IMG/VR virus record: IMGVR_UViG_2713897055_000015
Location: 1 to 10,263 of that record
Origin: a virus
Lineage: Duplodnaviria; Heunggongvirae; Uroviricota; Caudoviricetes
Length of the DNA stretch: 10,263 nt
Strand: one strand, 5' to 3'
The position numbers and the translations under genes are program-made. The notes beneath the pieces are model-generated. The model had not been told where the DNA came from and made no database searches. It saw nothing but the letters and a program-made list of their open reading frames with translations. This document shows positions 149-10,263 of this stretch, piece after piece; position 1 is the first letter of the stretch, and each line of letters starts with the position of its first letter.

Positions 149-238
149 CCTTAATCATCTGCGTAAACATAAGTAATCATAATGATCATTCAGCCAGCGC
201 AATTTTGAGCTTTGCTTTAATCTCAGTGAGTTACCGCC
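149..238. repeat. Copy 2 of the ~80-bp direct repeat, with a ~9-bp internal insertion; its end overlaps the stop codon of the 93-aa ORF
   Basis: Read directly; the hairpin present in copy 1 is disrupted here (GCGC to GAGC). Confidence 0.7.
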
Positions 239-512
239 GCAACCGTTCCGGCTTCTTCCAGTGGTACGTGATTTTCTCCTTCTCCCGATACATCTCCACG
301 CGGCGACGGTATGCCAGCAACTCAAGGACTCTGGTTCGTATGTTGCGCATATCCACGCCGTTAAGCTCAATACCATCACGGCGCATCACCTCAGCAACAA
401 CACGCACATAATTTTCAGCGGTCACGCTGTCCGGATGTGTGGCCTGTTCGTCATGCTGCTGGCTGATTCCGGTAACGCGGCGGATTAATCCCAGTAGTTC
501 GGCTTCTGTCAT
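231..512 (-). CDS. Hypothetical protein (93 aa), basic C-terminus, function unknown
   Basis: ORF from the six-frame track; G-rich Shine-Dalgarno-like GGGGG about 5 nt upstream of the ATG at 510-512; protein-like composition. No family recognised by eye. Confidence 0.5.
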   Translation of the reverse strand: MTEAELLGLIRRVTGISQQHDEQATHPDSVTAENYVRVVAEVMRRDGIELNGVDMRNIRTRVLELLAYRRRVEMYREKEKITYHWKKPERLRR

Positions 513-544
513 TGTGCCCCCATCGCTCTGATAGCCTGGTGTCG

Positions 545-612
545 TCGGGTCCTTCCTGGAATTATGGCCCGTTACGGGGCGGCGACCTCACGGTTTTTCG
601 CTATTTATGAGC
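545..612 (+). other. Lambda-type cos site copy 1 (cosQ-like flank, cosN, I2-like), plus-strand orientation
   Basis: 568-589 CCCGTTACGGGGCGGCGACCTC followed by TTTTTCGCTATTTATGA. From memory this is nearly identical to the lambda cosN region, with the 12-nt cohesive-end sequence GGGCGGCGACCT at 577-588. Confidence 0.75.
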
Positions 613-626
613 TTTTTTTAGAGGGA

Positions 627-777
627 GGTTGTTGTTTAATTGTTTGTCATATCCATTTGATAACTAAGTAAAAATAAAGAGCAATACAACAACCTGATAG
701 TGTTTTTTTGATGCTAAAAATAAAAAAATGCTAATTGAATCAAATAGTTTTAAAAAAATACGTGGTTGTTGTATTGC
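627..777. promoter_or_regulatory. AT-rich region with three GGTTGTTGT-type repeats in direct-inverted-direct arrangement (candidate cosB-like terminase-binding R sites)
   Basis: GGTTGTTGTTT at 627-637; GCAATACAACAACC at 681-694, which is the exact reverse complement of GGTTGTTGTATTGC at 764-777. Spacing after cosN resembles the lambda R3-R2-R1 layout but the repeat sequence differs from the lambda R sites as I recall them. Confidence 0.45.
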
Positions 778-806
778 GTATTTGATGGCGTAACAGAAAG
801 TGATTT

Positions 807-1247
807 TTAACTTTGCTGTTCTGTAACGACTGATTGTTCCATGCTGGCACGGCGAACGCTTACGGCATGACGCCACCCAGCCAGAAAGCCGGCCATTTTA
901 TTTCGCGCTTTGCTCACTTCTTCCGGTGAGTAGCCGTAAATCTGTAAACCTTCATCAAATCTATGTTCTGTTTCTTCACTGGAGTACTCGTCACGCTCAG
1001 ATGAAAGCAGCCTGGCAACCATAATTTTTTCCAGCGCACTGGTTTCTACGTGATATCCAATGGCCTCAAGATGGCTTTTACCTGAAGACCAAAGCAATGT
1101 ATGCCCGATGTGATAACCGCCGGACTTTCCGCGATCCGCATTAAGATACGGCATCCCTTGTTTGGTCCATGCGCGAATAGTGGTTCTGTTTACCTTGAAA
1201 TGTTCAGCTATTTCCTGCTGACTTACAAAACAAGCCTTATTAATCAT
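807..1247 (-). CDS. Nu1-like small-terminase-family protein: N-terminal winged-HTH cos-binding domain with a divergent C-terminal region (146 aa)
   Basis: N-terminus MINKACFVSQQEIAEHFKVNRTTIRAWTKQGMPYLNADRGKSGG resembles lambda gpNu1 N-terminus (VNKKQLADIFGASIRTIQNWQEQGMPVLRGGGKG, recalled from memory). SD GAGGT 8 nt upstream of the ATG at 1245-1247. A cos site lies about 90 bp upstream. Confidence 0.7.
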   Translation of the reverse strand: MINKACFVSQQEIAEHFKVNRTTIRAWTKQGMPYLNADRGKSGGYHIGHTLLWSSGKSHLEAIGYHVETSALEKIMVARLLSSERDEYSSEETEHRFDEGLQIYGYSPEEVSKARNKMAGFLAGWRHAVSVRRASMEQSVVTEQQS

Positions 1248-1304
1248 AATGTTACCTCAATTGACTGATTAAATGTTAATCAAGTGGTGGTGGTGTCACC
1301 TTCA

Positions 1305-1390
1305 CGGAAAAACGTCATAAATAGCGAAAACGCGCGAGGTCGCCGCCCCGTAACGGGTCCATATGCCGGAAAGGACCCGTAAAAAAAAGC
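1305..1390 (-). other. Lambda-type cos site copy 2 (cosQ-like flank, cosN, I2-like), minus-strand orientation, directly upstream of the Nu1-like gene
   Basis: Reverse complement of 1305-1390 reads ACGGGTCCTTTCCGG..CCCGTTACGGGGCGGCGACCTCGCGCGTTTTCGCTATTTATGACG. The 12-mer is at 1337-1348 on the complement. About 85% identical to copy 1 over ~70 bp, in inverted orientation. Confidence 0.8.
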
Positions 1391-1404
1391 CGGATTTCTC
1401 CGGC
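1381..1404 (-). terminator. Intrinsic terminator (hairpin GCCGGA-TTTC-TCCGGC followed by U8 on the minus strand) ending the capsid operon
   Basis: Read directly: A8 at 1381-1388 and hairpin at 1389-1404 on the plus strand, giving hairpin plus T-run on the minus strand, 7 bp past the stop of the 137-aa ORF. Confidence 0.75.
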
Positions 1405-1410
1405 CTTGTC

Positions 1411-1824
1411 TCAGATGGTTTTCAGTATGCGCTCGATGTCGCCATCATCGCCCGGGTTTCTGCCGTCGTATGCCATGCCAGCTGAAACGGCTTGCGGGCT
1501 GTGCATGTCCATAAAGTTTTCAAAGGCTGCGGTAAGCTCCGGCGCAACCTTCTGGCGTTCCTGCTCTATGGTCATGCTAAGGATGCTTTTAGCCGTACCA
1601 ACATCGATACAAGGCACGTTTGCCATTGCACGTAACAGCGGCTGATAGTCGTTATGCTCATGAAGCGCCATAATCGCATCAGCGCGCGGCTTGTCCTGCT
1701 CTTCCAGTTTGTTGAGTTGATATACGGCCTCGTAGGTTGATAAACCTCTGTCAGCCATTGCTCGCGCTTCGGCTTTAAATTTACTCGCCAGCGGTAGCGT
1801 CATGATGCTTTCATTCGTTGCCAT
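1411..1824 (-). CDS. Hypothetical protein (137 aa), last gene of the capsid operon; function unknown
   Basis: ORF with protein-like composition, 12 nt downstream of the decoration-protein gene. No confident homology by eye. Confidence 0.65.
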   Translation of the reverse strand: MATNESIMTLPLASKFKAEARAMADRGLSTYEAVYQLNKLEEQDKPRADAIMALHEHNDYQPLLRAMANVPCIDVGTAKSILSMTIEQERQKVAPELTAAFENFMDMHSPQAVSAGMAYDGRNPGDDGDIERILKTI

Positions 1825-1836
1825 CGTTCCCCCTGC

Positions 1837-2172
1837 TTATCGGGCCAGCGGCTGAACGGATACGCCAGAACCCGCAAAGGCGGCGCATTTTTTCGCATCG
1901 GTGTCGACGCTCTCGGGCCAGTTCACGGCGGCGATATTAAAGATCCCCGTCTTGTAGCACTGTGCTGATTTCTGCTTTGACGTGTCCACGGGGTACGAAG
2001 TCAGATAAACAGCCTTTCCGGACGCCTGACCATCCCACGGCTTAAACTCGCCATTGTCCGCCAGCATCAGCGGGGTAAATTCCTGAATGACGCCAGCATC
2101 AGCGGCAAAATGTACCAGCGTCGTGGATACCTGCTGACTGCCTGCAAATAACTCAATGTATGGAGTGTTCAT
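1837..2172 (-). CDS. Head decoration protein, lambda gpD-like (111 aa)
   Basis: Translation shares TPLML, WDG, YK(S/T)G(T/I)F, WPE and AFAG motifs in the same order as lambda gpD (recalled from memory); size matches (~110 aa). Confidence 0.8.
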   Translation of the reverse strand: MNTPYIELFAGSQQVSTTLVHFAADAGVIQEFTPLMLADNGEFKPWDGQASGKAVYLTSYPVDTSKQKSAQCYKTGIFNIAAVNWPESVDTDAKKCAAFAGSGVSVQPLAR

Positions 2173-2183
2173 AGAATCCCCCG

Positions 2184-3239
2184 TTAACCAATTTTGACGG
2201 TAACAAATTTGCGAATGTCTGCCGGCACCGGCTGCGGTGCGCTGTGCGTCTGCACGTACTCAATCGCCGGATCGCCGTCCTCAATCCAGTTTTTCGGGTA
2301 GTACATGTTTTGCGTTGCGCCCGTTCTTACCGCTTCCTGATCCATAATCGCACCATAAGCAACCAGCCCTTTATTGTTGGTGTTGCCCAAGACCAGCAAA
2401 TCAGGCTCAAGGAAATGTTTTTCGGTGCCGTCGCTGTCGGCGTATTTGCCGGAATAGACGATAAGGGCAATATCGCCCAGATAGCCTTTAAAGCTCACCA
2501 CTTCGCCTAGGTTTTTACAGGCCAGTTCTGCGGCGGATTCTGAACCACGGGAAAGATCGTACAGTTCGCGGAATTTTTTAAAGCTGCGTAACGTGCGCCA
2601 TACCTCAGCGCCCATAATCATGACGTTTGCGGGGCAATTGCCCTGATCCGCATAAAGCTCGATATCATAGATTGGATCGTGGGTTTCTTTGTCCTGCTCG
2701 GACCATTTACGGCCTTTGGCCTGCTCTATGATGTTGTTTTCCGGCATCTTCCAGTCGATTTCATAGCGTTCTATGCCTTCGCCCTCAATGATGTTTTTTC
2801 CGGTCGTTACCGCATTTACCGCCAGCCATTCAACACGCGCTTTAATAGCGTTTACCTGGCGGCGCATGTTGCCAGTAATCAGGCGCATACGGCGATAGGT
2901 TGGGTCGTTAAGCTGTGCCGGATCTTCTCCAGCCATGCGCATGATGGTTTTTGTTGGATCGATTTCGTGCTTTGGCTTCATGTAGCCAGGTTTAATCGTG
3001 CTGGTTTCGTACCCTTTATCGCGCTGTACCTGGCTACCAACCATAGGCGAGCAAAACGCTGACATAGTGACTTCTTCGGTGTCCAGGTTATCCAGCATGA
3101 TGTTTTGGGTGTTGAATGTCGCTACTTTCGGGAAAAACAGCGTGGTAAACAGCGGACTAAATTTAAATTCCGCAATATCCCCGCGATTCAGGTACGCAAA
3201 AAGCTGGTTAGTGTTAAGTGCCGTTGCTTTGCCTGCCAT
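2184..3239 (-). CDS. Major capsid protein, lambda gpE family (351 aa)
   Basis: Extended blocks match lambda gpE as recalled: EFKFSPLF..LFF, PGYMKPKHEI, GEDPAQLNDPTYRRMRLI, VSFKGYLGDIALIVYSGKY, YPKNWIEDGDPA. Confidence 0.92.
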   Translation of the reverse strand: MAGKATALNTNQLFAYLNRGDIAEFKFSPLFTTLFFPKVATFNTQNIMLDNLDTEEVTMSAFCSPMVGSQVQRDKGYETSTIKPGYMKPKHEIDPTKTIMRMAGEDPAQLNDPTYRRMRLITGNMRRQVNAIKARVEWLAVNAVTTGKNIIEGEGIERYEIDWKMPENNIIEQAKGRKWSEQDKETHDPIYDIELYADQGNCPANVMIMGAEVWRTLRSFKKFRELYDLSRGSESAAELACKNLGEVVSFKGYLGDIALIVYSGKYADSDGTEKHFLEPDLLVLGNTNNKGLVAYGAIMDQEAVRTGATQNMYYPKNWIEDGDPAIEYVQTHSAPQPVPADIRKFVTVKIG

Positions 3240-3445
3240 TATTCACCCCCATAATTTTTATGCATCCCAAGCGCCGCAAGTAAATAAGAGCGCACAAGTG
3301 AACCTATCGACGGCTCCGGCGTCATCAGCGGATCCAGTCCAGCCGCTACGCCAGCCTCATAGTTTTTTTTGTGGCGCTGCTTGAGCACCTCCACGATTTC
3401 GGGGCTTATGTACACCGAAACACCGCCTTTTTTCTCTTCTGCCAT
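3239..3445 (-). CDS. Hypothetical small protein (68 aa), first gene of the capsid operon, translationally coupled to the capsid gene (TAATG overlap)
   Basis: SD AGAGGA ~11 nt upstream of the ATG at 3443-3445; stop overlaps the capsid gene start by 1 nt. Confidence 0.6.
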   Translation of the reverse strand: MAEEKKGGVSVYISPEIVEVLKQRHKKNYEAGVAAGLDPLMTPEPSIGSLVRSYLLAALGMHKNYGGE

Positions 3446-3484
3446 AGTCAGAAATTCCTCTTTGACTTAAAAAAATCACAACTG

Positions 3485-3512
3485 GATGTTCATCCAGTTA
3501 TGATTATAATCA
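3485..3512. promoter_or_regulatory. Promoter/operator region upstream of the capsid operon: imperfect inverted repeat GGATG-TT-CATCC (3485-3496) and perfect 12-bp palindrome TGATTATAATCA (3501-3512) containing TATAAT on both strands
   Basis: Read directly; lies 40-70 bp upstream of the first capsid-operon ATG. Confidence 0.5.
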
Positions 3513-3608
3513 TGATTGCATTTTGCGCAATAAAATTGAGTTGTGTTGCAAATTATGAAATGATTTACAGCAACAGTAGTCACCATGCTGTTAACCTCGT
3601 AAGCAAAA

Positions 3609-3647
3609 GCCCGATAAGCTTCCTCCTGTACTTATCGGGCTTTTTTT
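3609..3647 (+). terminator. Hairpin (GCCCGATAAG...CTTATCGGGC) followed by T7 on the plus strand; intrinsic terminator for a plus-strand transcript or bidirectional element
   Basis: 10-bp stem, 12-nt loop, seven T at 3641-3647. No annotated plus-strand gene ends here. Confidence 0.5.
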
Positions 3648-3653
3648 GGGTAC

Positions 3654-3676
3654 AAAAAGCCGGATTTTCTCCGGCC
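3654..3676 (-). terminator. Intrinsic terminator of the SSB operon (hairpin GCCGGATTTTCTCCGGC, U5 on the minus strand); near-identical to the terminator at 1381-1404
   Basis: Read directly; lies 8 bp past the SSB stop codon. Confidence 0.7.
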
Positions 3677-3683
3677 TGTGCGT

Positions 3684-4094
3684 TCAGAACGGAATATCAT
3701 CACCGTAGGGGTCATCGTCTCCCGCTGGTGGCTGATTACCCTGTGCGCCTGTGGTTTTGCGTCTGTTCCCGCCAGGACGTGCCGCACGGGCACTGATTAC
3801 GCTGTCTGCAATAACCTGATAACCCTGCCGCGTTTCCCCGTTCTGTCCGGTCCACTGGCTTATCTGCATCACGCCAGATATGCTGGCAACGTCGCCTTTT
3901 TGATGTTTAGCCAGGAAGTCGGCCTGCTTACCAAATGCCATCACCGATAGCCATAACGTAGCCGTTCCGTCATCTGCCTGGCTGCACGGAAGGGGGACCG
4001 CCATACGCGCCAGCGTCATCGGTGTGCCCTTGCTGGTCTGTTTTACCTGCGGGTCGTCCACCAGCCGCCCGTAAGCGGCTATCTGTGCTGTCAT
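3684..4094 (-). CDS. ssb: Single-stranded DNA-binding protein (SSB family, 136 aa)
   Basis: OB-fold-like N-terminal region resembling E. coli SSB, Gly/Gln-rich linker, and the characteristic acidic C-terminal tail ending DDIPF. Confidence 0.88.
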   Translation of the reverse strand: MTAQIAAYGRLVDDPQVKQTSKGTPMTLARMAVPLPCSQADDGTATLWLSVMAFGKQADFLAKHQKGDVASISGVMQISQWTGQNGETRQGYQVIADSVISARAARPGGNRRKTTGAQGNQPPAGDDDPYGDDIPF

Positions 4095-4452: not shown

Positions 4453-4675
4453 CTCTACCCATCTACCCGAATGCTCATCATGTCAGTAATGGCGCGGCTT
4501 TCAGCGGGTAGATAGCTTTTTGGGCTCCTCTACCTGCCGTCTACCCTGCTACCTGAAACTGATAAAATCAGGTAGAAGAGGTAGAGAGCTTTTATTAGCC
4601 TTCTACCTAGCCCTCTACCCACTTATCATGTTGAATAATATGCGTTTATTTCATTCAGGTAGATGGGGTAGAGGG
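4453..4675. repeat. Iteron array (about 12 copies of a TCTACC-core octamer in both orientations) with AT-rich stretches; putative origin of replication
   Basis: CTCTACCC 4453-4460, ATCTACCC 4461-4468, GGGTAGATA 4506-4514, CTCTACCT 4528-4535, TCTACCCT 4540-4547, CAGGTAGAAG 4569-4578, GGTAGAGA 4580-4587, TTCTACCT 4601-4608, CTCTACCC 4613-4620, GGTAGAT 4658-4664, GGGTAGAGGG 4666-4675. Lies immediately 3' of, and overlapping, the primase gene end. Confidence 0.7.
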
Positions 4676-6438
4676 CTTTTACAAAAAATTATAAAAAACG
4701 CGTCGCAATCGTCTGTTGTAATTGCGTTGGTCTGCGTTACTCCCTTAACTTTTCGCGTAATATATTCATGCCCGTAAACTTTCGCCGCTGGCTTCATGGC
4801 CTTGCTGAACTCAGCCACGTTTAGCGGTTTGCTCCTGCCTGCGTATGCCATAAACGCCAGATAGACGCGGTAAAGGCTGTTCCTGGTCGTGTACTTCACT
4901 GAATCGCCACCGCCGCCCATCATCAGGCCGCGTGCTTCCTCCAGAAAATTCAGGAACTGGCAAAACTCAATAACCGGATCCGTCTGTTGCTTTATTGCCA
5001 GAGCTTCATCACCGTCACGCTGTTCCAGTAGTAAAGCCCGTGCCTTCTCAGGGTCGGTAAAGTTCGCCAGCAATCGGCGGATAATGACAGGGATTTCAGC
5101 CGCAATCTTTTCCGGTAGCTCCCTGTCTTTTTCGGCCTCACTGACGATATTGTCGAAACGGAAAATTACGCGACGACGTGACACACCTCCGGCCCGTTCG
5201 GTGAATATCATCGGGTTATTGTTGGTAGCCAGCACCACCGCCCTGATTACCGCCGTAAAACGCTTCTCATATTTCGGGTTAATTTCCACGGGGTCGCCGC
5301 CCGTGATTTTCTTGATGCCCGTTCCTTCGCCTGTATATTTCGGCTGGTCAGCCAGGACGATAAGACGACTCCCGACAACCTGCGCACGTCCACCAGCATC
5401 ATCAAGCGATGTCATTTCAGCGCTTACCGTGTTCTGTTTCCCTGCCAGAAGGCTGGCTATGTGTGTGAATGTACTTTTACCGCTCCCGCCGTCTCCGGTG
5501 GCCTCAATAAACATCTGCCAGTCGTACCGGTTCGCCATAATCATGTACAGCGCGGCACATATACGCATCATCTTGCGCGGGTCTTTTCCGGCTGCGTGCT
5601 CAAGCCATTTATGAAAGTTTGGCGCGTTGTCGCGGATATTCTCCCCTGGTGCTGGTGGCGTGTACTCAATGCCGTTGTGCGTGGTGATCCAGTTCTCCGG
5701 CGTGTGCGGGGAAAATTCCCCCGTTTTCAGGTCAAGCGCACCATTGGCGAACGGCAGCAAATCGCCGGACGGCTCGCCCATTGGTTCGGCAATAACTTTT
5801 AACGCTTCCACGGCGTTATTGATTACGCGCTTGCTGAAAGTGGCCCTGTGCTCTGAATAGATCGCCACCATTTCGCGGCTAAGTTCCATTGTGCTGACCG
5901 GACACCATACCCCGCCGCGCCATACGTGAACGATTTCACTTTCCGGATGCACACAAACGCCATCAAATCGACCAGCAAGCATCTGTGCGCGCTCACTGTC
6001 TGCCATTTGTGCCAGTTGCGTATTTTTCTGCTCCGGCATGGTAAGCCCTGCGGCAATATTTTCACGCTCAGCATTCAGATAGCGCCGCCAGTTTTCACAC
6101 TTCTGGACGTGCATTCCTTCGTGGTAAAAATTTGCGTCCTGAATATCTGCCGCCGCCAGCTTCTGACCAATCTTTTTGGTCTCCACTAAATCCAGTTCTC
6201 CGGCCTGGTACAGCCTTACGCGCTTTTTCCCATCCGGAACAATTTTCAGCGCATCAAGTTCGGCAAGCTGCTTTGGCCCAAGCCACACAGGCGGCACATT
6301 ATCGCCGGATGCGGGGCCATCCTGCTCCTGCCATTGTTTCGCGTGCGACCAGGCATCACTACCCGCAAAGATAATTACCTCTGTGTCTTTGTGTTTTATT
6401 CCGCGTGGCTGTTTTTTTACGTTCGGTGCCAGTTTCAT
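4651..6438 (-). CDS. Primase-helicase of the P4 alpha / D5 family (595 aa) with a P-loop NTPase domain
   Basis: Walker A motif GDGGSGKST within a region typical of phage/plasmid primase P4-family C-terminal domains; position (upstream of iterons, downstream of immunity-type genes) matches satellite replication genes. The final ~17 codons are encoded by iteron sequence. Confidence 0.88.
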   Translation of the reverse strand: MKLAPNVKKQPRGIKHKDTEVIIFAGSDAWSHAKQWQEQDGPASGDNVPPVWLGPKQLAELDALKIVPDGKKRVRLYQAGELDLVETKKIGQKLAAADIQDANFYHEGMHVQKCENWRRYLNAERENIAAGLTMPEQKNTQLAQMADSERAQMLAGRFDGVCVHPESEIVHVWRGGVWCPVSTMELSREMVAIYSEHRATFSKRVINNAVEALKVIAEPMGEPSGDLLPFANGALDLKTGEFSPHTPENWITTHNGIEYTPPAPGENIRDNAPNFHKWLEHAAGKDPRKMMRICAALYMIMANRYDWQMFIEATGDGGSGKSTFTHIASLLAGKQNTVSAEMTSLDDAGGRAQVVGSRLIVLADQPKYTGEGTGIKKITGGDPVEINPKYEKRFTAVIRAVVLATNNNPMIFTERAGGVSRRRVIFRFDNIVSEAEKDRELPEKIAAEIPVIIRRLLANFTDPEKARALLLEQRDGDEALAIKQQTDPVIEFCQFLNFLEEARGLMMGGGGDSVKYTTRNSLYRVYLAFMAYAGRSKPLNVAEFSKAMKPAAKVYGHEYITRKVKGVTQTNAITTDDCDAFFIIFCKSPLPHLPE

Positions 6439-6734
6439 TTTTTACCCCTGAATACGTTAAGCATCTTTTTTATTTCCTGAATATTGGCGCGTGCTTTCTC
6501 CCTGCTGGTTGGTTTACTGCGGGGCGCTGCCTGTACCAGAGAAAAATCACGATCGAACTGATAAACAGGCATAACGCAGTCATATTCGTAGCCTTCACGG
6601 CGGTAAGTTACGCGCCGTTCCTCCACGCCTTTAATCGTTACCGTGCCGCCGTACTGGTCGCGGTAAATATCCCCGCGCATGAATTTAGTGCGAGTTTTGC
6701 CACTGGCAGTTAAGCCAGAATATTTAAGTTTCAT
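6435..6734 (-). CDS. Small protein (99 aa), possibly DUF4222-like, translationally coupled to the primase gene (ATGA overlap)
   Basis: Motif RRVTYRREGYEYDCV recalls DUF4222-type proteins from P4-like elements (from memory, unverified); SD GGAG upstream. Confidence 0.55.
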   Translation of the reverse strand: MKLKYSGLTASGKTRTKFMRGDIYRDQYGGTVTIKGVEERRVTYRREGYEYDCVMPVYQFDRDFSLVQAAPRSKPTSREKARANIQEIKKMLNVFRGKK

Positions 6735-6739
6735 TATTT

Positions 6740-6967
6740 TTATTCTCCGGTGTGGGGCGCGTTATTATTTTCGTGAATTGCCATCGCCTTATCCAGTTCA
6801 TCAATTACAGGCGATAGTAATGTCTGAACGGCGGCAAGCATTAATGACGAAGATTCTTCTCCAGCTTCCGTTGCTTCAATTAATTTAATTAACAACGCAT
6901 TCATTTCACGCGCTTTAATTAATGCGTTTTCAGAATGAATAAGAACATCATAGGGTATTTTATTCAT
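6740..6967 (-). CDS. Hypothetical small protein (75 aa), overlapping the upstream Icd-like gene by 8 nt
   Basis: ORF with protein-like composition in operon context. Function unknown. Confidence 0.55.
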   Translation of the reverse strand: MNKIPYDVLIHSENALIKAREMNALLIKLIEATEAGEESSSLMLAAVQTLLSPVIDELDKAMAIHENNNAPHTGE

Positions 6968-7130
6968 GACTCACCCCCTGACGAATACGGGCGACAAAAA
7001 TCAGATGTGCGTGCGGCAGCTGGGCGCGTGCTTCGCGTTCAGTGGCAGCGGTAACGGTGTAAATATCAATGCTGCTGTGGTGGCACTGCATAAAGCGCCA
7101 GACAAAGTAAGGGCGTGCGGATACAGCCAT
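6960..7130 (-). CDS. Icd-like small protein, copy 2 (56 aa; MAVSARPYFVWRF...ARIRQGVSHE)
   Basis: Start chosen at the internal ATG (7128-7130), preceded by AGGAG at 8-nt spacing. The C-terminal 50 aa are paralogous to copy 1. The long N-terminal extension in the ORF track (168 aa) is not supported. Confidence 0.6.
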   Translation of the reverse strand: MAVSARPYFVWRFMQCHHSSIDIYTVTAATEREARAQLPHAHLIFVARIRQGVSHE

Positions 7131-7194
7131 GTGAAAGGCTCCTACAGTAATTTTAAGGAGTCTCGCTACTACGCTGCTAAACGGGGTGGCGAGA

Positions 7195-7256
7195 CGTAAC
7201 AGGGTTAGCAGACTGGCACTGTAGGAACCAGCGAGCGCAAAGGCTCCCCCGTTACG
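7195..7256 (-). ncRNA. Candidate CI/C4-like immunity RNA carrying a seqB-like element
   Basis: On the minus strand CGUAACGGG (from plus 7248-7256) can pair with CCCUGUUACG (from plus 7195-7204), closing a ~60-nt element that contains GGUUCCUACAGUGCCAGUCUGCUAACC. That inner sequence is complementary to an upstream stretch (7321-7360) and to the SD region of Icd-like copy 2 (7138-7150). Confidence 0.4.
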
Positions 7257-7416
7257 CCCCGCCATAATGCGGGTATGGGTAGGCTTACGGACACAAAAAA
7301 ACCGCATATCGGAATATAAGCGGCTGTCCGCTACAGTATTCAGGCTGCTAAACCCGGTCGCCATGTGGGCGACGGGGGAAGCATACAGCCCCGTTATAAT
7401 TTTTTGCAAGCGGTTT

Positions 7417-7614
7417 TTACGCATGATGTGACCCCTGACGAATACGGGCGGCGAATACAGCAACACAACCGGACGGGCAACGGCTACGCGCTTCGCGTTC
7501 CGTCCAGGCGGTTACGTGGATGATTTGATGGTCTGACGCGCCAAAGGCAATAAAACGCCACACAAAGGCGGTTTGTGTGTGCGCTAGTCGTGGGGTATGC
7601 TGTCTTACAGCCAT
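7417..7614 (-). CDS. Icd-like small protein, copy 1 (65 aa; MAVRQHTPRLAHTQTAFVWRF...ARIRQGSHHA)
   Basis: Start chosen at the ATG (7612-7614) preceded by AGGAG at 8-nt spacing, same start context as copy 2 (AGGAG-N8-ATGGCTGTA). The ORF-track extension to 7737 is unsupported. Confidence 0.55.
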   Translation of the reverse strand: MAVRQHTPRLAHTQTAFVWRFIAFGASDHQIIHVTAWTEREARSRCPSGCVAVFAARIRQGSHHA

Positions 7615-7689
7615 AATCGTTACTCCTGTTAACGGTTTGGTTAGACGCCCTGCATGTGTGCCACCACTGCGGGGCGTTGTCGTTTGGTG

Positions 7690-7799
7690 CATCGCACCAC
7701 TCATTTTTAACCTATCAGTAAGTGAATCGCACTTCAAGCCTTTCTCTGAAATTTTTTTTTGTGTATACTGAATCGCACCAACTTAGAGAGGATTCAGTA
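7690..7799. promoter_or_regulatory. Divergent promoter/operator region with repeated (TG)AATCGCAC motifs and a T9 tract
   Basis: ATCGCAC at 7692-7698, GTGAATCGCAC at 7722-7732, TGAATCGCACC at 7770-7780; TATACT -10-like hexamer at 7764-7769 preceded by TG, upstream of the RHH gene; the minus-strand immunity-type operon starts in the opposite direction. Confidence 0.5.
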
Positions 7800-8420: not shown

Positions 8421-8615
8421 TTAATTGACGCGTTCGCGGTTTTTGACCCACGCCACAACCTCAGACTTAACCCAGCCAACCGAACGACCGCCAAGACTGA
8501 TACGGGAGGGAAAGCGGCCTTGTTTTTCCATCTCGTAACGAGTTGTGCGGCAAACGCCTGTTAGCTCTCTGCATTCTTTTTCGCGGATTACACGATCTTC
8601 ATTTATTTCGCGCAT
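8421..8615 (-). CDS. alpA: AlpA-family phage transcriptional regulator / excisionase-like protein (64 aa)
   Basis: Small HTH protein with the typical AlpA-family pattern (..LTGVCRTTRYEMEKQGRFP..I.LG.RSVGW...EV..W...) located next to a P4-type integrase. Confidence 0.85.
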   Translation of the reverse strand: MREINEDRVIREKECRELTGVCRTTRYEMEKQGRFPSRISLGGRSVGWVKSEVVAWVKNRERVN

Positions 8616-9024: not shown

Positions 9025-10263
9025 TCAAGAATTTTGAGAGTAAATTCGCGGGGTCATAACAACGATTTTTTCATCATTGTTCTGGAGAAGCTCGAGACGC
9101 TCAACCCATAGATTAAGAGCGTCACGTTTTGCATCGAGATAACGGGAGTGATTATAGACTCGTTGCACTCCTGGCAACTGGTGCGCGGTTAGCTGCTCCA
9201 CTACATGAGGATCCACGCCTAAATCGTTCAGCATCGTTGTAAACGTGTGCCGGATGTCGTGCAACGTCCAGGGGGCTTGATTAATACGTCTGTGTGCCGT
9301 TCTTCCGTACTCTGATACGGATGATTGCCCTTTCAGTTCTCCGAGCAATAATCCCGTGTGCCTGTTCTGCTCCACCAGCTTCGTTACGAACGGCAAGATC
9401 GCTTCCGGTATTGGCCTGAATATTGCTACCTTCGTTTTGCTATGTTCTTTCGGCACGGTCCAGAGCATTTCTTTAAAATCCCATTCCTGGACCTCAGAGC
9501 GTCTTAGCTCAGTGGTACGACATCCGAAGACAATCAGGAGGCGAATCAGGGCGCTGTAGTACGGTGGGTAAATTTTTTCATCCAGGGCGCGGAGTAATTC
9601 CCCAAGCTCCTTGTTTGTTAGTACGCGCTCGCTTATTTCTGCTTTTTTCCCAACATCACCTACAACCATATCATCTAGAACGTTGGTAATTGCGTAGCGT
9701 CGTTTGCGGCAGTACTTAAGCGCCTGCTTGCATACCTGTAACAAAAATCCTGCTGATACCGGATTACGCTTAGCAAGCTGATCAAAACAGGTCAGCCAGT
9801 GGCGTAGCTCGCATTTTTCCAGCGGCATAGCACCAATATGGCTGATTATGTGTGTATTGATCCGGCTTTTCAGAGATTCGTAATCTGTGCGCTTTTCCTT
9901 CGCGTACGATTCAAGCCAGTAAGTGAGCGCTTCCTTAACCGTAACAGGTGATAACGCTTCCTGTACGGTGTGATTAAGCTCATGGCGTGGATTTTTACCC
10001 TCAGCAAGCCAGGCGCGACACTGCGACGCTTTTTCCCTGGCTGCTTTCAGGCTCAAATCTGGATAATTTCCCAGCCTCAGACGTTCAGGGGCTACCTTCC
10101 TGCCTGTTCCGGCCCTGTAAGTGAAATACCAGGTTAACAGGCCATTGGTTGAATGCCTTACGCTAAGGTTGCCACCATCATTAAAAAAGGTGTTTTTTGT
10201 GGTTGGTGATCCGCTTAATTTTCGTAAAAGAGTGTCGCTAAGTCTATGAATTGCCCTGCTCAT
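9025..10263 (-). CDS. int: Tyrosine site-specific integrase, P4-type (412 aa; start codon at the window edge, N-terminus possibly a few residues longer)
   Basis: N-terminal arm-binding-type region (LSD..L..L.....K....DGG.L.V.....G...W.F.Y) and C-terminal catalytic signature HDIRHT ... VYNHSRY, typical of P4/CP4-57-type integrases. Confidence 0.95.
   Translation of the reverse strand: MSRAIHRLSDTLLRKLSGSPTTKNTFFNDGGNLSVRHSTNGLLTWYFTYRAGTGRKVAPERLRLGNYPDLSLKAAREKASQCRAWLAEGKNPRHELNHTVQEALSPVTVKEALTYWLESYAKEKRTDYESLKSRINTHIISHIGAMPLEKCELRHWLTCFDQLAKRNPVSAGFLLQVCKQALKYCRKRRYAITNVLDDMVVGDVGKKAEISERVLTNKELGELLRALDEKIYPPYYSALIRLLIVFGCRTTELRRSEVQEWDFKEMLWTVPKEHSKTKVAIFRPIPEAILPFVTKLVEQNRHTGLLLGELKGQSSVSEYGRTAHRRINQAPWTLHDIRHTFTTMLNDLGVDPHVVEQLTAHQLPGVQRVYNHSRYLDAKRDALNLWVERLELLQNNDEKIVVMTPRIYSQNS

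Follow-up and report, generated by a model that had tools for sequence, protein, structure and literature searches.

A probable rppA allele beside an island-type cos site in an EcCICFT073-type PICI

What is known about the Rpp (redirecting phage packaging) proteins of Gram-negative cos-type phage-inducible chromosomal islands (PICIs)? RppA, RppB and RppC each block lambda and phi80, but not HK97, when expressed alone, and the phage mutations that escape this block map to TerS (E65K, Y50N and others) (PMC6739421). RppA and RppC bind the TerS of lambda and phi80 in two-hybrid and pull-down assays, and the combination of TerS binding, phage block and island packaging has been shown for RppA, RppB, RppC and a Pluralibacter homologue (PMC6739421). 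In structure 6HN7, an Rpp dimer is flanked by two TerS N-terminal domains, with the winged helix-turn-helix (wHTH) of Rpp sitting where the second TerS DNA-binding domain would be; RppC dimerises with itself through its C-terminal domain, which also packs onto TerS helix alpha3 (PMC6739421). Transfer of the island is lowered by deletion of rppA, by the substitutions L51D or F121R, or by TerS escape alleles (PMC6739421). In the presence of RppA, plasmids and a chimeric phi80 are transduced better when they have the cosB of the island site cos1 and less well when they have a phage cos. The double mutant R21A/T22A loses the stimulation at cos1 and keeps the interference. Roles have been assigned to these residues: R21 and T22 in cos1 recognition, L51 in heterodimerisation with TerS, and F121 in homodimerisation (PMC6739421). 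For the island EcCICFT073, a helper terS mutation abolishes transfer, and cos1 is required for transfer by lambda and phi80; deletion of a second site, cos2, raises transfer slightly, and deletion of both sites abolishes it (PMC6092414). The TerL-binding domain that is missing from Rpp is proposed to come from TerS (PMC9026076).

Here, we describe an ORF in a stretch of DNA of 10,263 nt (“the window”; IMG/VR record IMGVR_UViG_2713897055_000015, Caudoviricetes), together with the sites that surround it. Pfam and PHROG annotation and synteny identify the window as an EcCICFT073-type PICI with its genes on the minus strand (Table 1). The reference island was located in the CFT073 genome at L002:27931-38655, where the gene for RppA (c1503, WP_000565609.1; 144 aa) occupies L002:37660-38094. 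The gene order (integrase, alpA, DUF4222, primase, SSB, E, D, 137-aa gene, rpp, 93-aa gene) is the same in the two islands, and their DNA identity is 92% in 811-3680, 87% in the replication module and 79% in the integrase.

Several features of the island lie apart from rpp. The capsid set (1411-3239) consists of an E-type capsid protein and a gpD-type decoration protein, without a portal or protease, and the neighboring 137-aa protein is similar, at residues 46-119, to the C-terminal part of head maturation protease/scaffold proteins (phrog_53). The EcCICFT073 homologues of genes in the capsid region, c1499 and c1500, were reported to cause no interference, and EcCICFT073 was reported to be packaged in full-size capsids. 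Two overlapping minus-strand ORFs, at 6960-7466 and 7417-7737, have no Pfam match and share the terminal motif ARIRQG; in related islands, the corresponding ORFs carry the annotation Icd-like cell-division inhibitor. A direct repeat of ~80-90 nt (26-105 and 149-238) lies at the island end; its copies are 89-96% identical and 123-133 nt apart, and the second overlaps the 3' end of the 93-aa gene. This repeat may represent a duplication of the island end or be related to att.

Table 1. Features of the window, with positions counted from its first nucleotide
Feature	Position	Strand	Basis or remark
cosQ-like sequence and cosN (577-588) of cos2	542..588	+	exact cosN match; inverted relative to cos1
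phage-type cosB of cos2	589..790	+	three R-like GGTTGTTGT elements
GGTTGTTGT elements of cos2	627-635, 686-694, 764-772	+, inverted, +	bp 51-59, 110-118, 188-196
93-aa protein, phrog_1561, function not assigned	231-512	-	next gene downstream of rpp
rpp gene (probable rppA allele)	807..1247	-	ORF list; ATG start, 146 aa and stop
wHTH DNA-binding domain, predicted mimic of the TerS DNA-binding domain	codons 1-64, 1056..1247	-	phrog_57, hhalign to Nu1; limits from RppC structure
helical C-terminal domain (alpha4-alpha6)	codons 65-146, 810..1055	-	RppC alignment to residue 125; F121 present
island-specific cosB block of cos1, bp 42-73 (CCGTGAAGGTGACACCACCACCACTTGATTAA)	1276..1307	-	invariant in 15 cos1 copies
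R3-PICI, proposed Rpp site (AGGTGACACCACCACCAC)	bp 48-65 = 1284-1301	-	position proposed in PMC9026076
cosN cohesive end of cos1 (GGGCGGCGACCT)	1337..1348	-	exact match; bp 1 = window 1348
cosQ of cos1 (TTTACGGGTCCTTTCC)	1368..1383	-	matches lambda and EcCICFT073 cos1 cosQ, Fig. S1 of PMC6739421
terminator-like hairpin and T-run, predicted	1386..1407	-	consensus scan; abuts cosQ of cos1, after the 137-aa gene
137-aa protein	1411-1824	-	phrog_1999
gpD-type decoration protein, 111 aa	1837-2172	-	Pfam/PHROG annotation
lambda-E-type major capsid protein, 351 aa	2184-3239	-	Pfam/PHROG annotation
SSB	3684-4094	-	Pfam/PHROG annotation
D5-type primase	4651-6438	-	Pfam/PHROG annotation
DUF4222 protein	6435-6734	-	Pfam/PHROG annotation
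AlpA	8421-8615	-	Pfam/PHROG annotation
integrase	9025-10263	-	Pfam/PHROG annotation

The ORF at 807-1247, which ends with TAA at 807-809, is a real coding gene, as a first-pass annotation of the same DNA had it. Its product is 95.1% identical to RppA of EcCICFT073 across all 144 residues, a match consistent with Fig. S1 of PMC6739421, where the RppA sequence is printed. The two proteins are separated by seven substitutions (N3D, H59R, G64R, V77F, E110D, V140A and V141D, from RppA to the window protein) and by a C-terminus that is 2 residues longer in the window protein (146 aa versus 144 aa). Identity to RppC is 45.5%, and the crystal sequence of RppC (6hlk_A) is matched by phmmer among PDB sequences with an E-value of 5.5e-32, aligned over residues 3-125. 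All of the residues mutagenised in RppA (R21, T22, L51 and F121) are kept. In an alignment of 17 Rpp homologues from Escherichia, Shigella, Klebsiella, Phytobacter and Salmonella, the proposed DNA contacts R21, T22, T23, R25, W27, K29 and K41 are invariant, and L51 is conserved in at least 90% of the family. Judged by its sequence, then, the ORF encodes an RppA allele and not a new kind of factor. The first-pass annotation had proposed a factor that binds DNA next to cos without being able to recruit terminase alone, and had offered, as one of its options, a heterocomplex with helper TerS analogous to those of Rpp-type proteins. This reading is supported, and the protein is an Rpp itself, not an analogue. 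The seven substitutions and the C-terminal extension could shift affinity or helper range relative to RppA.

Could the protein instead be a regulator of the MerR or excisionase type, acting on the late genes of the island and having no part in packaging? There are weak, sub-threshold matches to HTH_17, MerR_1 and other HTH families, and the authors of the RppC structure also remarked on MerR-like folds (PMC6739421). An AlphaFold2 model built from a shallow alignment places helices at 71-84, 91-103 and 108-145, at low confidence (mean pLDDT 52), with the helices in the same order as in RppC. The only significant PDB neighbors of this low-confidence model in a Foldseek search are 6hlk and 6hn7_A, with a poor superposition (TM ~0.35); MerR proteins come next and are not significant (E >0.3). 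Because of the pLDDT of 52 and the TM of ~0.35, the fold comparison is not counted as independent evidence. However, none of the HTH matches reaches its Pfam cut-off, the full-length homology is to Rpp proteins with demonstrated function, and the position of rpp right after cosN mirrors the cos-terS layout of phages. A regulatory role in place of packaging is therefore extremely improbable.

The N-terminus is also similar to small terminase subunits. Residues 6-46 fall in a match to the PHROG family phrog_57, “terminase small subunit” (E 3e-8), and PDB chains of the lambda TerS N-terminal domain match residues 8-53 (E ~0.1-0.2). The match to Pfam Phage_Nu1 is confined to residues 8-38, on profile positions 3-33 of 164, with 14.4 bits against a cut-off of 30; a whole-profile match above the PF07471 threshold is not reached. 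With hhalign, a profile of the 17 homologues aligns Rpp residues 8-58 to residues 3-54 of full-length lambda Nu1 (27% identity, hhalign probability 90%) and leaves the C-terminal 90 residues of Rpp unaligned. Over its first 54 residues, the Nu1 sequence used is borne out by the PDB alignments. The first-pass annotation had recognised the gpNu1-like wHTH, which is indeed present, but had ended it at about residue 45, and the similarity extends to about residue 55. Its observation that the remaining ~100 aa are unlike the assembly and gpA-binding regions of Nu1 agrees with the hhalign result. It had also remarked that no large-terminase gene follows; tblastn with lambdoid TerL and two full-length TerS detected neither a TerL nor a full-length TerS in the whole window (best E 0.5), and the next gene encodes the 93-aa protein.

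This likeness bears on whether the ORF might be a conventional, self-sufficient island TerS that recruits helper TerL directly, as in pac-type SaPIs. In addition to the TerS-like wHTH, PGAP annotates a sister-island gene at this position as “terminase small subunit”. However, the short, sub-threshold Nu1 match argues against such a protein, as do the absence at rpp of any similarity to the Nu1 oligomerisation or TerL-binding regions and of an adjacent terL. Moreover, the sister-island gene, that of E. coli W24, encodes a full-length Nu1-family protein of another kind (180 aa), to which the ORF has no detectable similarity, and EcCICFT073 needs helper terS for its transfer (PMC6092414). A self-sufficient TerS consequently has next to no probability. 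A complete conventional TerS in a profile-profile search is what the first-pass annotation had named as contrary to its reading, and the search found none.

The site cos1 lies directly upstream of rpp. Its cosN is identical to the lambda cohesive-end sequence GGGCGGCGACCT, and the site has the layout of a helper-identical cosQ and cosN followed by a non-phage cosB directly before rpp. In all 15 cos1 copies collected, the rpp ATG is at bp 102, with the first cohesive-end base as bp 1, and Murialdo and Feiss likewise give bp 102 for the rpp ATG of PICI-C. The cosB of the window cos1 is identical over bp 19-74 to that of EcCICFT073 cos1, which confers RppA-dependent packaging (PMC6739421), and R3-PICI (AGGTGACACCACCACCAC) occurs as a single copy within the window. 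Promoter scanning of the minus strand gave no sigma-70-like promoter for rpp.

The cosB of cos1 is invariant beside rpp in 15 loci, which argues for a functional protein-site pair. It also speaks against a pure interference factor, that is, a decoy or competitor at the helper cos or a sink for TerS, with no role in packaging the island. Such a factor would fit the block of lambda and phi80 by RppA, RppB or RppC alone, and a competitor at the helper cos was the second option of the first-pass annotation. Against it, island transfer falls when rppA is deleted and is poor with TerS escape mutants that do not bind Rpp, RppA boosts the transfer of plasmids that have a cos1 cosB, and the two functions come apart in R21A/T22A (PMC6739421). 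The same mutant argues against competition at the helper cos as the cause of the block: since RppA defective in DNA binding still blocks phage, interference stems from capturing TerS. Interference as the sole function is thus very unlikely, if slightly less so than a regulator or a self-sufficient TerS.

The window ORF is instead very probably an RppA allele that acts by capture of TerS and redirection to cos1. For this allele, we infer TerS binding, interference and packaging from its near-identity to RppA. When a helper of the lambda, phi80 or 21 type is active, an Rpp homodimer, held together by its C-terminal helices, would capture monomers of helper TerS. Capture would occur by mimicry of the dimer interface of the TerS DNA-binding domain, with extra contacts to TerS helix alpha3. 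The resulting heterocomplex would no longer recognise the phage cosB, so phage packaging would stop. The heterocomplex would bind the island-specific cosB of cos1 through the recognition helix of Rpp (R21, T22 and others). Finally, the captured TerS, with its C-terminus free, would recruit helper TerL, which would cut the lambda-identical cosN and package island DNA. Because Rpp has no terminase-binding domain of its own, it would depend on helper TerS for this last step.

How does the locus compare with the closest known systems? The residues for DNA contact, TerS contact and dimerisation, the bp-102 position, the cos1 cosB and the gene order are all alike in EcCICFT073 with its RppA, whereas the window integrase is only 79% identical and the cos2 cosB is of the GGTTGTTGT type in the window and of the CATGTCCGG type in EcCICFT073. 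RppC of EcCIEC2733.1 (6HLK; with lambda TerS 1-98, 6HN7) has the same N-terminal wHTH and helical dimerisation domain, and has R21, T22, T23, R25, W27, K29, K41 and L51 in common with the window protein. It differs at R30, K39 and R43, which are Q30, R39 and G43 in the window protein, and the two proteins diverge in the alpha6 dimer interface. Between RppA and RppC, no cross-dimerisation is seen (PMC6739421). Lambda gpNu1 (PF07471) resembles the window Rpp in its wHTH and in the position of its gene immediately after cosB, but the window Rpp is without the Nu1 oligomerisation and TerL-binding regions, has other DNA-recognition residues and is not followed by terL. The SaPI proteins Ppi and TerS likewise neutralise helper TerS and turn packaging to the satellite (PMC6739421). 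They do so, however, with two proteins and headful packaging, whereas Rpp does both jobs as a single protein, acts at a cos site and retains helper TerS as an adaptor.

On the other side of rpp, a 72-nt inverted repeat (546-617 and 1308-1379, 83% complementary) puts a second cosQ-cosN downstream of the gene and facing it. The cosQ-cosN half of this site matches that of EcCICFT073 cos2; on the cosB side (window 619-810), EcCICFT073 gives no match. The window cosB contains three copies of GGTTGTTGT against 0.14 expected, and three were reached in none of 200 shuffles. The orientation pattern of these elements matches that of lambda R3/R2/R1, and the positions match for the first two; the lambda positions used agree with Fig. 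S1 of PMC6739421. An inverted repeat at 681-706/752-777 was considered as a terminator or regulatory hairpin and rejected, as it corresponds to the inverted R2 and direct R1 of the cos2 cosB.

Which phages carry a cosB of this type? BLAST of cos2 against deposited phage genomes returned the cosQ-cosN core only, plus one Enterobacter phage to about bp 64, and phage counterparts of the cosB were found only by scanning IMG/VR for cosN followed by GGTTGTTGT at the same spacing. This pattern scan gave 88 loci. A full-length Nu1-family terS points away from cos in 67 of these, with terL after terS in 60; 17 loci have a convergent rpp, as in the window. The cosB of the window cos2 is 76-79% identical to that of lambdoid phage contigs over ~200 bp, with all three R cores exact, and the matching phage contigs run on into terS and terL (e.g., L015, which is IMGVR_UViG_2541047935_000008, L008 and L034). 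Identity to unrelated types (lambda, a 21-type prophage, EcCICFT073 cos2 and the window cos1) is 51-56%. EcCICFT073 cos2 (L002:38095-38320) has the R elements CATGTCCGG/CCGGACATG, and a second group of phages (L094-L097 and others) has a cosB collinear with it; terS and terL follow in 93 of the 124 matches to a scan for this type. The TerS of this second group matches Nu1 only beyond about residue 62, and its N-terminal DNA-binding domain is of another type. A 2018 paper described phage cosB as not recognisable in EcCICFT073, and cos2 goes undiscussed in Murialdo and Feiss.

The TerS proteins of these phages were compared at V3, I11, F12, A44, I47, Y50, A51, E65, L69 and R70, which are Rpp-interface or escape positions of lambda TerS. 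A 21-type TerS, a TerL and a cos for comparison were taken from a lambdoid prophage of CFT073, and in the TerS alignment the TerS of this prophage keeps the lambda residue at each of these positions. The TerS of both phage groups that match cos2 differ at nearly all of them, in an alignment that is uncertain at about 48-60. Phages of the cos2 class would thus have TerS without the residues that contact Rpp, so that they could package the island directly, without Rpp; plausibly, they also escape capture by Rpp. On this basis, it is possible, though short of probable, that rpp is flanked by two functionally different packaging sites. One, cos1, would be used through Rpp by helpers of the lambda, phi80 and 21 types, and the other, a complete borrowed cos2 (cosQ-cosN-R3-spacer-R2-R1), would be used directly and without Rpp by another class of lambdoid phages, widening the helper range. 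Alternatively, cos2 could be a recombination relic or a decoy. The higher transfer by lambda and phi80 after deletion of cos2 fits a non-cognate site and a competing site alike.

There is a parallel for a borrowed cos2 in SaPIbov5 and SaPIbov4. As proposed here for cos2 only, these satellites carry a helper-type cos so that helper terminase packages them directly, and SaPIbov4 also has two putative cos sites. The difference is that the borrowed cos in the window coexists with an Rpp-dependent cos, to which it is inverted, and that we infer its use by a cognate helper.

Islands differ in their cos2 cassette, which is of the GGTTGTTGT type in the window, of the CATGTCCGG type in EcCICFT073 and of a third type in W24. 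The third type is lambda-like (CAGATCCGTTCT). In the W24 island (L003:6565-7443), the rpp slot holds the 180-aa Nu1-family terS behind a cos1-type cosQ-cosN and a phage-like cosB, and the R3 of this island (GGTGGTGGTGG) is the reverse complement of CCACCACCACC, the core of the proposed Rpp site in cos1. In eight island variants (L006, L009, L011, L020, L027, L028, L052 and L090), only about 22 codons of the rpp 3' end are left between two converging phage-type cos sites. One of these sites is of the GGTTGTTGT type behind a cos1-type cosQ and the other of the CATGTCCGG type, which suggests that cos cassettes are often exchanged or inverted across the cosQ-cosN repeat that they share.

A scan of genome contigs with the single protein as query gave no confirmed locus, and complete E. 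coli genomes and viral contigs were used instead. Of 5,426 complete E. coli genomes, 44 (NCTC86 among them) contain the 861-bp cos2-rpp-cos1 module, at ~98% identity. The exact window Rpp sequence is found on 30 public contigs, where it is labelled “hypothetical protein”. In the 229-member cluster at 90% identity, as for the exact protein, the labels are “hypothetical protein” or “helix-turn-helix domain-containing protein” and never Rpp; Pfam has no family for Rpp.

Publication of the Rpp family, with structure and mechanism, dates from 2019, and the window gene, as an allele of the founding member, is already known; for this reason, the novelty implied by the first-pass annotation was overrated. 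One side result may be new, namely cos2 as a phage-type cos with a possible packaging route for other helpers that is independent of Rpp. What do these findings mean? First, they give the correct name to a protein of a structurally solved family with a role in satellite spread and phage interference. Second, they expose an annotation gap, in that a characterised family goes unnamed in public databases. Third, and of greater weight, if the proposed reading of cos2 is true, the second, inverted cos becomes a testable statement on helper range, and it would become possible to predict from sequence which prophages mobilise which islands.
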